Positions 36,728-56,795 of a DNA stretch of 64,000 nt are shown piece after piece. Position 1 is the stretch's first letter, and every line of letters starts with the position of its first letter. The notes under the pieces are model-generated. The model saw only the letters and a program-made list of their open reading frames with translations. It did no database searches and was not told the DNA's origin. This DNA is from Escherichia coli (GTDB taxonomy: Bacteria > Pseudomonadota > Gammaproteobacteria > Enterobacterales > Enterobacteriaceae): NCBI RefSeq assembly GCF_050920415.1, contig NZ_CP169309.1. One strand, given 5' to 3'. The translations under genes were made by a program, and so were the position numbers.

Positions 36728-37141
36728 TTAGCCGATCACCGCCGTACCCAGCCGACAAGTACAGCAACGCCGCCCCTGTTCATCGAAAACAACGATTTCC
36801 CAGCTCTGATTTTGCCGCCCAAGATGCAGCGGCTGGCAGACGCCGCGTACCTTTCCCTCAGACACTGGGCGATGATGGGTGGCGTTAAGCTCCGTGCCCA
36901 CCACGCACTGTCCGTCGCGAGTCATCATAAATCCGGCCATCGATCCCAGGGTTTCCGCCAGCGCCGCCGACGCGCCGCCATGTAGTAAACCGAACGGTTG
37001 ATGAGTACGGGTATCAACCGGCATTTCGGCTTCCAGCACATCATCGCCCAGACGGGTATAAACAATTCCCAGATGCGCCACCATTGTGTTATCGCTGGTG
37101 GCGTTCAGTTCGTCGAGCGTTAAATGGCGTTTCCAGATCAT
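36728..37141 (-). CDS. entH: Proofreading thioesterase EntH (hotdog fold)
   Basis: 137-aa ORF directly downstream of entA; hotdog thioesterase signature. Confidence 0.92.
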
Positions 37142-37143
37142 GC

Positions 37144-37890
37144 TTATGCCCCCAGCGTCGAGCCGCCATCTACCACAATATCCTGTAGGGTGATATGGCT
37201 GGCGAGGTCAGAGGCGAGGAACAAAATCGTGTTGGCGATCTCTTGTGGACGGGCGATTTTCCCCAGCGGAATGCCGAGTTTAAACTGCTCGCCAAAGCCG
37301 CGAATACGCTGCTCTTCGGCGTCATCACTCACCCACAGCGTGCGTTGCATATCGGTGTCGGTGGACCCCGGGGAAACCACATTACAGCGTACACCACTAC
37401 CCGCCAGTTCCAGCCCGACGCTCAACGCCAGGCTTTTCAGCGCCGCTTTCGACGCACCGTAAGCACTCATACCAATACGCGGTGTGTGTGCGGCGTCGGA
37501 CGCCACAGTAACAATCGCCCCGCCCCGCTGACGACGAAACTGGTTCATGGTCTGCTGGAACAGGTTAAACGCACCGCCGACGTTAACCGCAAAAGTCTGC
37601 TGCCAGTCCTCCTTGCTGAGCTGATCGGTCGCGCCCATGCGCAAAATTCCCGCCGCATTGACCAGCACGTCCAGTCGCTCCGTTTGCGCTAACAGTCGCT
37701 GACACACTTGCGCCACCTGCGCAGCGTCGGCTACATCCATTACTTCGGTCGCAAAGGGATATTGCTCCAGAGTGAACGCTTGATCAAAACCTGTAACTTT
37801 CGCTCCGGCCTCAACAAATGCCAGCGCCGTGGCGTAGCCAATACCTTTCCCCGCACCGGTTACCCAGACATTTTTGCCGCTGAAATCCAT
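37144..37890 (-). CDS. entA: 2,3-dihydro-2,3-dihydroxybenzoate dehydrogenase EntA (SDR)
   Basis: 248-aa ORF from [18 protein letters not shown] (SDR Rossmann motif); start overlaps entB stop. Confidence 0.95.
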
Positions 37891-38747
37891 CATTTCACCT
37901 CGCGGGAGAGTAGCTTCCACCAGGCATCGATGGTCGGATTTTTCGCCAGCATGACAAAATCGATATCGCCATGCACTTTGCGCCAGCGCGCCGCCAGCGC
38001 CATCATGCGCACCGAATCCAGACCGTAATCAATTAGGTTGTCGTCATCGAACGGCTCATCGGACTCGTCCAGCAACGGCAGGATCACCTCTCGCAGCGCC
38101 GCTTTGGTTGAAGGGATCGGTGCAGGCAATAGTTCTTCGGTCATCACCACCCGGCCAGAACGCCCGGCTACATATTTCAGCGACATCAAATGCTCGTCAC
38201 GACTGAAATCGGCCAGCGCATCCGCCACCATAAACGGTTTAATATCGCGCATAAATGCGTCGGTTGCGGTGGTCATACAGCCAATGTGGGCGTACACCCC
38301 GGTAATAATCAGCTGGTTACGTCCACTCTCTTTGAGCATTTGTTCCAGCGGAGAACGATGAAACGCGCTGTAGCGCCACTTCACCAGCACCGTGTCGTCG
38401 GCATCTGGCGTCAGGCGATCCACCACCTTTTGCTGTTCCGGTGAACGGGTCAGGCCCGGCCCCCACATATCATTCAACAGCGCCCGATCTTCATCGCTCT
38501 GCTCTTTCGGCTGGGCGGTGTAATAAACCGGAATATTGTGCTGTTTGCAGTAGTCGCGTAGTGCCGCAATATTCGCGATCACCTGCTCCATCATCGGGCA
38601 GTTCTCGCCCCAGAAGCTAACAAAATAGTCCTGCATATCATGGATTAACAACGCGGCACGTTGCGGCTCAAAGGCCCAGTTGACTTTATTGTGCGGAATA
38701 TCGTGAGACTCCGGCAGTGCGTAAGCCTGTAATTTTGGAATAGCCAT
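37890..38747 (-). CDS. entB: Isochorismatase / aryl carrier protein EntB
   Basis: 285-aa ORF with isochorismatase domain and C-terminal carrier domain (DSV phosphopantetheine site). Confidence 0.95.
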   Translation of the reverse strand: MAIPKLQAYALPESHDIPHNKVNWAFEPQRAALLIHDMQDYFVSFWGENCPMMEQVIANIAALRDYCKQHNIPVYYTAQPKEQSDEDRALLNDMWGPGLTRSPEQQKVVDRLTPDADDTVLVKWRYSAFHRSPLEQMLKESGRNQLIITGVYAHIGCMTTATDAFMRDIKPFMVADALADFSRDEHLMSLKYVAGRSGRVVMTEELLPAPIPSTKAALREVILPLLDESDEPFDDDNLIDYGLDSVRMMALAARWRKVHGDIDFVMLAKNPTIDAWWKLLSREVK

Positions 38748-38760
38748 CGTGTTCTCTCCT

Positions 38761-56000: not shown

Positions 56001-56037
56001 TGCTAACGTCAGATTGTTGACAAAGTGCGCGTCGTTC

Positions 56038-56140
56038 ATGCCGGATGCGGCGTGAACGCCTTATCCGGCCTACAAAAATCTTGCCAATTCAATATATTGC
56101 AGGATAGTGTAGGCCTGATAAGCGTAGCGCATCAGGCAGT
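56038..56140. repeat. BIME (two REP palindromes) between fepA and entD
   Basis: tgccggatgcggcgtgaacgccttatccggcctac and gtaggcctgataagcgtagcgcatcaggca in opposite orientation. Confidence 0.75.
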
Positions 56141-56165
56141 TTTGCGTTTGTCATCAGTCTCTAAT

Positions 56166-56795
56166 ATGGTCGACATGAAAACTACGCATACCTCCCTCCC
56201 CTTTGCCGGACATACGCTGCATTTTGTTGAGTTCGATCCAGTAAGTTTTCGCGAGCAGGATTTACTCTGGCTGCCACACTACGCACAACTGCAACACGCT
56301 GGACGTAAACGTAAAACAGAGCATTTAGCCGGACGGATCGCTGCTGTTTACGCCTTGCGGGAATATGGCTATAAATGTGTGCCCGCAATCGGCGAGCTAC
56401 GCCAACCTGTGTGGCCTGCGGAGGTATACGGCAGTATTAGCCACTGCGAGACTACGGCATTAGCCGTGGCATCTCGTCAACCGATTGGCATTGATATCGA
56501 AGAGATTTTCTCTGTACAAACCGCAAGAGAATTGACAGACAACATTATTACACCAGCAGAACACGAGCGACTCGCAGAATGCGGTTTAGCCTTTTCTCTG
56601 GCGCTGACACTGGCATTTTCCGCCAAAGAGAGCGCATTTAAGGCAAGTGAGATCCAAACTGATGCAGGTTTTCTGGACTATCAGATAATTAGCTGGAATA
56701 AACAGCAGATCATCATTCGACTAGAGGATGAGCAGTTTGCTGTGCACTGGCAGATAAAAGAAAAAATAGTCATAACGCTGTGCCAACACGATTAA
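56166..56795 (+). CDS. entD: Enterobactin synthase 4'-phosphopantetheinyl transferase EntD
   Basis: 209-aa ORF from MVDMKTTHTSLPF; PPTase family; the ORF-track start upstream lies inside the BIME. Confidence 0.92.
   Translation: MVDMKTTHTSLPFAGHTLHFVEFDPVSFREQDLLWLPHYAQLQHAGRKRKTEHLAGRIAAVYALREYGYKCVPAIGELRQPVWPAEVYGSISHCETTALAVASRQPIGIDIEEIFSVQTARELTDNIITPAEHERLAECGLAFSLALTLAFSAKESAFKASEIQTDAGFLDYQIISWNKQQIIIRLEDEQFAVHWQIKEKIVITLCQHD

Follow-up and report, generated by a model that had tools for sequence, protein, structure and literature searches.

A complete enterobactin cluster of the canonical Escherichia coli type, with conserved divergent control regions, in a 64-kb chromosomal window

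Positions 36728-56795 of the 64-kb stretch of Escherichia coli DNA analysed here (hereafter, the window) almost certainly constitute the canonical chromosomal enterobactin system of the species, which lies between cstA and hokE/ybdK. We identified the locus from a list of the open reading frames (ORFs) of the window and from megablast searches against 5,426 complete E. coli genomes, 5411 of which cover at least 80% of the interval at one place. The window as a whole corresponds to the mrdA-to-pheP part of the E. coli chromosome, and gene coordinates were carried over to window numbering from the RefSeq annotation of strain MFDS1022581. The edges of the interval coincide exactly with gene ends: the entH stop codon, on the minus strand, finishes at 36728, and entD finishes at 56795. 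Between these edges, the genes follow the K-12 order (entH-A-B-E-C, fepB, entS, fepD-G-C, fepE, entF-ybdZ-fes, fepA-entD). The annotation tables of MFDS1022581 and K-12 agree in both order and orientation, and the region is collinear by BLAST. Specifically, order, orientation and gene length (16/16) are the same as in the ent-fep-fes cluster of K-12 MG1655 (b0583-b0597). We found nothing in the sequence of the window that contradicts this assignment. A cluster with the layout and regulation that an earlier note on this DNA had described is already known, and the window holds an ordinary E. coli copy of it. In this strain, a textbook core iron-uptake system is present in full and is apparently functional, with little to be gained from it beyond correct annotation.

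The earlier note had stated that all expected ent, fep and fes genes are present and intact, and had called for a reference alignment to expose any frameshifts. Presence and integrity hold for every gene that it named, but fepE (46868-48001) was left off its list. In ungapped comparisons of the cluster genes with their K-12 MG1655 counterparts, all sixteen proved as long as in K-12 and free of internal stop codons, which rules out frameshifts or pseudogenes in the cluster. Across the sixteen genes, identity to K-12 ranges from 92.8 to 96.2% at the nucleotide level and from 90.3 to 99.8% at the protein level. When scored against curated models, 14 of the 16 proteins exceed NCBIfam equivalog cut-offs, and the other two, EntB and YbdZ, exceed Pfam cut-offs. 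The coding DNA of the K-12 cluster is about 5% diverged from that of the window, mostly at synonymous sites, and this divergence extends across at least 32818-60908. By codon position, divergence from K-12 is 2.0%, 1.0% and 13.5% at first, second and third positions, respectively, and reaches 17.2% at 4-fold degenerate sites; in most genes, 83-98% of the differing codons are synonymous. This pattern points to purifying selection on working genes. Because the genes are intact, match curated models, retain their motifs and are nearly identical to those of the well-studied K-12 system, that the strain is enterobactin-proficient is a well-founded prediction.

The genes for synthesis of 2,3-dihydroxybenzoate (DHB) and for its activation form one minus-strand series. 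Of these, entC (40381-41556) encodes an isochorismate synthase of 391 amino acids (NF011591, 861.7 bits against a cut-off of 624; 99.0% amino-acid identity to K-12), and entE (38761-40371) a DHB-AMP ligase of 536 amino acids (NF008192, 1030.5 bits against 783; 98.7%). The 285-amino-acid product of entB (37890-38747) combines an isochorismatase (Pfam Isochorismatase, 142 bits) with an aryl carrier protein (PP-binding, 31.6 bits) and is 98.6% identical to its K-12 counterpart; its carrier serine motif, GLDSV at Ser245, is kept, with local sequence unchanged relative to K-12. The series continues with entA (37144-37890), for the 248-amino-acid 2,3-dihydro-2,3-dihydroxybenzoate dehydrogenase (NF006074, 440.9 bits against 312; 98.8%), and ends with entH (36728-37141), for a proofreading hotdog thioesterase of 137 amino acids that has the K-12 length and 99.3% identity to K-12 (NCBIfam NF007607 equivalog, 314.5 bits against 237). 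The DHB branch is therefore represented by EntC and EntA above their equivalog cut-offs and by EntB with its Isochorismatase domain, all of full length.

The assembly line is equally well represented. The minus-strand gene entF (48216-52097) encodes a nonribosomal peptide synthetase (NRPS) termination module of 1293 amino acids with C-A-T-TE (condensation, adenylation, thiolation, thioesterase) architecture, which scores 2814 bits with NF007605 (cut-off 2400) and is 96.4% identical to K-12 EntF. Its Pfam domains occur in the order Condensation, AMP-binding, PP-binding and Thioesterase, and the HHLLVDG (HHxxxDG) motif, the carrier Ser1006 and the thioesterase residues Ser1138, Asp1165 and His1271 are kept in locally unchanged sequence. 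Also on the minus strand, ybdZ (52094-52312) encodes the 72-amino-acid MbtH-like partner of EntF (Pfam MbtH PF03621, 76 bits against a cut-off of 27), whose best match in the PDB is chain B of 5JA1, YbdZ itself, with an E-value of 4.8e-44. 5JA1 is the solved structure of YbdZ in complex with EntF (PMC10510592), and the window likewise has a 72-amino-acid MbtH-family gene directly upstream of the NRPS gene, overlapping its start codon. The tryptophans of the SLWP, GW and WL...HW motifs of YbdZ are kept, and its gene adjoins entF, which encodes the adenylation domain. YbdZ of the window differs from the crystallised protein by seven substitutions, with no hint of altered function. On the plus strand, entD (56175-56795) encodes a phosphopantetheinyl transferase of 206 amino acids (NF007604, 420.5 bits against 169; 94.7% identity to K-12); between it and fepA, which lies upstream, is a 174-bp spacer with a repetitive extragenic palindromic (REP)-type repeat. 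EntE, EntF and EntD all have equivalog matches, EntB supplies the aryl carrier domain, and the carrier serines and the thioesterase triad are in place. Within the REP-type repeat of the fepA/entD spacer, Rfam model ES036 (CssrF) matches at 56075-56116 on the plus strand (44.4 bits; gathering score 37.6), and this match is probably a repeat element, not a dedicated small RNA gene.

The genes for export, uptake and release (entS, fepA, fepB, fepD, fepG, fepC and fes) encode products that all score above NCBIfam cut-offs and have K-12 lengths. The exporter gene entS (42705-43955, minus strand) specifies a major facilitator superfamily protein of 416 amino acids (NF007792, 716 bits against a cut-off of 324; 99.8% amino-acid identity to K-12). 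The TonB-dependent ferric-enterobactin receptor of 746 amino acids is encoded by fepA (53760-56000, plus strand; NF010048, 1282.5 bits against 493; 99.1%), and the periplasmic ferric-enterobactin binding protein of 318 amino acids by fepB, which starts with GTG (41745-42701, plus strand; NF008200, 519.8 bits against 205; 97.8%). The ATP-binding cassette (ABC) transporter is specified by three plus-strand genes: fepD (44066-45070; permease, 334 amino acids; NF007760, 625.2 bits against 428; 98.8%), fepG (45067-46059; permease, 330 amino acids; NF007759, 646.9 bits against 422; 97.3%) and fepC (46056-46871; ATPase, 271 amino acids; NF007606, 612.3 bits against 497; 98.5%). The enterochelin esterase of 400 amino acids is encoded by fes, also with a GTG start (52315-53517, minus strand; NF007758, 705.7 bits against 222; 95.8%). 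The omitted fepE, also known as wzz(fepE), is a minus-strand gene for an O-antigen chain-length regulator of 377 amino acids (NF007699, 622.7 bits against 300); it lies inside the interval, yet is not needed for enterobactin.

With the pathway steps taken from established K-12 knowledge, the system would work as follows. EntC, the isochorismatase domain of EntB, and EntA would convert chorismate to DHB. EntD would phosphopantetheinylate both the aryl carrier domain of EntB and EntF, and EntE would load DHB onto EntB. EntF, assisted by the MbtH-like YbdZ, would activate serine, condense it with DHB and carry out the cyclotrimerisation, with EntH acting in proofreading and EntS exporting the siderophore. 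FepA, FepB and FepDGC would bring the ferric complex back into the cell, where Fes would hydrolyse it. Six transcription units are expected to diverge from three intergenic control regions, and under iron-replete conditions Fe2+-Fur on promoter-overlapping operators would repress all six.

The claim that Fur-box-like dyads occupy the three divergent intergenic regions is borne out: the best Fur-consensus sites of the 64-kb window all lie in these spacers, above chance, and they match operators footprinted in K-12. Specifically, the 64 kb contain a single match to the 19-bp Fur consensus GATAATGATAATCATTATC with at most three mismatches; it falls in the entS/fepD spacer, at 44035-44053 (0 in 100 shuffles). 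When up to four mismatches to GATAATGATAATCATTATC are allowed, all five matches fall within the entC/fepB spacer (41586-41604 and 41701-41719, with four mismatches each) or the entS/fepD spacer (44029-44053). The 19-mer consensus fits the fes/fepA site poorly; with a three-hexamer model, this site has the top score of the window (16/18 at 53570-53587). That model gives four matches of at least 15/18 in the window (shuffle mean, 0.17). A Fur-box-like sequence, GATAATGACCATGATCATA, in the coding region of cstA (35362-35380; five mismatches to the 19-mer, hexamer score of 15/18) is the only comparable match outside the three ent control regions.

The Fur-footprinted regions of K-12 have been tabulated (Chen et al. 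2007; PMC2189734, Table 3), and at the K-12 entS/fepD site Fur bound in both gel-shift assays and footprints (PMC2189734). The coordinates in that table refer to an older genome version, and we converted them to NC_000913.3 with an offset of +777, which is confirmed by the distances that the paper gives to the starts of fepA, fepD and entS. In window coordinates, the K-12 footprints fall at 53562-53609 (fepA-fes), 41562-41610 (entC) and 41695-41725 (fepB), with the fepD-entS cluster centred on 44041. The 188-bp entC/fepB control region (41557-41744) accordingly has two separate Fur operators, one for entC (41562-41610, core 41586-41604) and one for fepB (41695-41725, core 41701-41719). The 110-bp entS/fepD region (43956-44065) has a shared operator of overlapping 19-mers at 44029-44053, and the 242-bp fes/fepA region (53518-53759) a shared operator at 53562-53609, with core hexamers GATAAT-ATTATT-GATAAC at 53570-53587. 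K-12 shows this arrangement too, with an operator each for entC and fepB and a common one for each of the other two gene pairs; distances to start codons are the same except at fepB (PMC2189734). No base differs from K-12 in the fepD-entS cluster or in the equivalents of the entC and fepA-fes (48 bp) footprints. Because the operators are identical in sequence to footprinted K-12 sites, apart from the outer 8 bp at fepB, Fur is predicted to bind at the three control regions in this strain as well. Six operons transcribed from three Fur-controlled bidirectional regions have been described (PMC4911079), and, across nine E. coli strains, ent and fep genes belong to the core Fur regulon defined by chromatin immunoprecipitation with exonuclease treatment (ChIP-exo) and expression data (PMC10164565).

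The control regions are nearly invariant relative to K-12. Of the aligned base pairs, 0/110 differ in entS/fepD, 3/242 in fes/fepA and 3/188 in entC/fepB (98.4-100% identity). Given the 17.2% divergence at 4-fold degenerate sites, the binomial probabilities of such conservation range from 1e-9 to 3e-16. The conservation covers the entire spacers, including the long 5' untranslated region (UTR) of fepA, and reaches beyond the Fur boxes; the invariant spacers possibly hold further regulatory elements that have yet to be described. The comparison with K-12 provides a clean example of purifying selection on entire bidirectional promoter-operator regions, in which the control DNA is better conserved than the neighbouring coding DNA. 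The most diverged intergenic region is the non-regulatory fepE/entF spacer (48002-48215), which is 87.9% identical to K-12. Just past the entF stop codon, at 48166-48202 on the minus strand, this spacer has an AT-rich hairpin of 15 bp and, after it, a T-rich tail; together they resemble a terminator placed between entF and fepE.

The one large difference in the control regions concerns the fepB leader. In K-12, 186 bp (19538-19723 of the K-12 locus compared) separate the fepB operator from the fepB Shine-Dalgarno sequence; they are absent from the window at 41717/41718, and the entC/fepB spacer measures 188 bp in the window versus 374 bp in K-12. The element is a GC-rich imperfect palindrome found at a median of six places per genome. 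It may resemble boxC-type repeats. The long leader occurs in 2726 of the 5426 complete genomes, an approximately 50:50 polymorphism, and a strain-specific deletion as the origin of the short spacer is ruled out, since the additional DNA of K-12 is a repeated element present in that many genomes. The indel borders the Fur operator of fepB, where it changes the outer 8 bp of the footprint. The K-12 operator lies about 206-236 bp upstream of the fepB GTG, whereas that of the window lies about 20-50 bp upstream. Because the repeat element is missing from the leader, the 5' UTR of fepB would be about 40 nt long in the window, compared with about 225 nt in K-12. That the indel acts as a natural regulatory polymorphism, in which shortening of the 5' UTR from about 225 to about 40 nt changes FepB expression or its response to iron, seems to us quite unlikely. 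Nevertheless, the indel is common and little discussed, and could be examined for a regulatory effect.

Several observations weigh against the view that this is simply an ordinary, working copy of the K-12 system. Amino-acid changes relative to K-12 are most numerous in YbdZ (7/72), EntD (11/206), Fes (17/400) and EntF (46/1293). The fepB leader is 186 bp shorter than that of K-12, as it is in about half of E. coli. The fepB footprint is identical to K-12 at 23 of 31 positions, with mismatches only in its last 8 bp. Finally, a scan of the window for the sigma-70 consensus did not rise above shuffled sequence (16 found, 15 expected), and the promoter positions therefore rest on the K-12 literature.

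Some of these observations could be taken to mean that the cluster is structurally complete and functionally impaired in this lineage, with enterobactin synthesis or uptake lowered by missense changes in the most diverged proteins or by the differences in the leader and at the operator edge of fepB. Protein identity to K-12 is indeed lowest in YbdZ (90.3%), EntD (94.7%), Fes (95.8%) and EntF (96.4%), and in ybdZ, entD and fes only 50-65% of the differing codons are synonymous, versus approximately 90% elsewhere; to this are added the differing last 8 bp of the fepB footprint and the 186 bp missing from the leader. However, all gene lengths are kept, there are no stops, every catalytic motif that we checked is conserved, and all proteins clear curated equivalog or Pfam cut-offs by a wide margin. 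Although YbdZ has changed more than any other protein of the cluster, its seven substitutions are conservative or situated in the C-terminal tail, its tryptophans are retained, and the identical protein (WP_000885808.1) is annotated in strain EC42405 too. The short fepB leader, moreover, is carried by about half of E. coli genomes. We therefore regard impairment as very improbable, and an intact, working enterobactin cluster remains the reading that we favour.

The gene overlaps on which the earlier note had remarked can all be read directly from the sequence. On the minus strand, entB and entA share one nucleotide at 37890 (TGATG, in which the final A of the entB stop also begins the entA start), and the stop of ybdZ overlaps the start of entF by 4 nt (ATGA, 52094-52097). 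On the plus strand, 4-nt ATGA overlaps join fepD to fepG (45067-45070) and fepG to fepC (46056-46059). The remaining junctions are short gaps: 2 nt in both entA/entH and fes/ybdZ, 9 nt in entC/entE and 13 nt in entE/entB. An overlap that the earlier note missed is found where fepC (plus strand) and fepE (minus strand) converge, with stop codons overlapping by 4 nt (46868-46871) in a TTTAAA context, as they do in K-12.

The description of this coupling as unusually tight, by contrast, does not stand, because K-12 shares the junctions and genes in unrelated operons of the window overlap as well, with 4 nt shared in citD/citE, 26 nt in citX/citG, 32 nt in dpiB/dpiA and 28 nt in ybdN/ybdM. A stronger claim would be that overlaps of 1-4 nt are a special adaptation of the locus that enforces a fixed stoichiometry, notably a 1:1 ratio of YbdZ to EntF. 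The ATGA and TGATG junctions at ybdZ/entF, fepD/fepG, fepG/fepC and entB/entA would fit such a role, as would the complex that YbdZ and EntF form in crystals. Yet the junction coordinates are the same in K-12, which means that the overlaps are not a feature of this strain, and the cit, dpi and ybd pairs overlap without any relation to enterobactin. Furthermore, ATGA is the commonest same-strand gene overlap in bacteria, and an overlap permits translational coupling without, by itself, fixing a 1:1 output. We consider such an adaptation unlikely. Translational coupling as such may take place at the ATGA and TGATG junctions, including ybdZ-entF, judging from their sequence.

To place the cluster in its population context, we compared it with other E. 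coli genomes; for the leftmost 32 kb of the window, the comparison relied on searches of the collection only. The closest genome is that of MFDS1022581, in which the interval is 100.0% identical, with four single-nucleotide polymorphisms (SNPs) in 28 kb, and carries full ent, fep and fes annotation. The SNPs are located at 43969, in the entS/fepD spacer, and at 45282, 47236 and 54886 (one each in fepG, fepE and fepA). At 43969 the window has the K-12 base, and none of the four creates a stop codon. Strain EC42405 is 98.3% identical over 28728-62581 and has the same haplotype. In most E. coli genomes (5306 records), by contrast, identity to the interval is 90-95%, whereas the ent region of K-12 itself is at least 95% identical to that of nearly all E. 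coli genomes. Relative to most E. coli genomes, positions 20000-64000 of the window are diverged by about 5%, and positions 1-12000 (cell-wall and lipoate genes) are 97.3-97.8% identical to every other genome. Local introgression, in which divergence would be limited to the ent locus, is ruled out, because divergence from most E. coli is at about the same level in the flanks (20000-32000 and 58525-64000) and the identity to EC42405 spans 28728-62581. Together, these comparisons indicate that the window represents a minority, deep-branching E. coli haplotype or lineage, be it a deep lineage or a large recombined segment.

The flanks of the cluster also differ from K-12. Between cstA and entH, the window has a 772-bp segment (35966-36737) that is absent from K-12. 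A plus-strand ORF in this segment (36195-36617) encodes a 140-amino-acid DUF7832 protein (Pfam PF25191, 124 bits), for which we found no relative in NCBIfam or PDB. The full cstA/entH spacer with this ORF is present in just 33 of the 5426 complete genomes, and an identical protein is encoded at the same position in six other assemblies.

On the other side of the cluster, K-12 has one hokE/sokE toxin-antitoxin unit followed by IS186 near entD, whereas the window has three units in tandem (56808-58294), with a period of 502/503 bp, and no IS186 adjoining entD. The three hokE genes lie on the minus strand at 56917-57069, 57419-57571 and 57922-58074, and the region has three Rfam sok matches. Tandem Repeats Finder reported no repeat in the hokE region, the period of 502-503 bp being beyond the limit of the tool. 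EC42405 also carries three units; other genomes carry one or two. Elsewhere in the window, Rfam models matched the rnk leader upstream of rnk (23104-23212, plus strand, 124.9 bits) and a cspA-type thermoregulator 5' UTR at cspE (9675-10088, minus strand, 123.8 bits).

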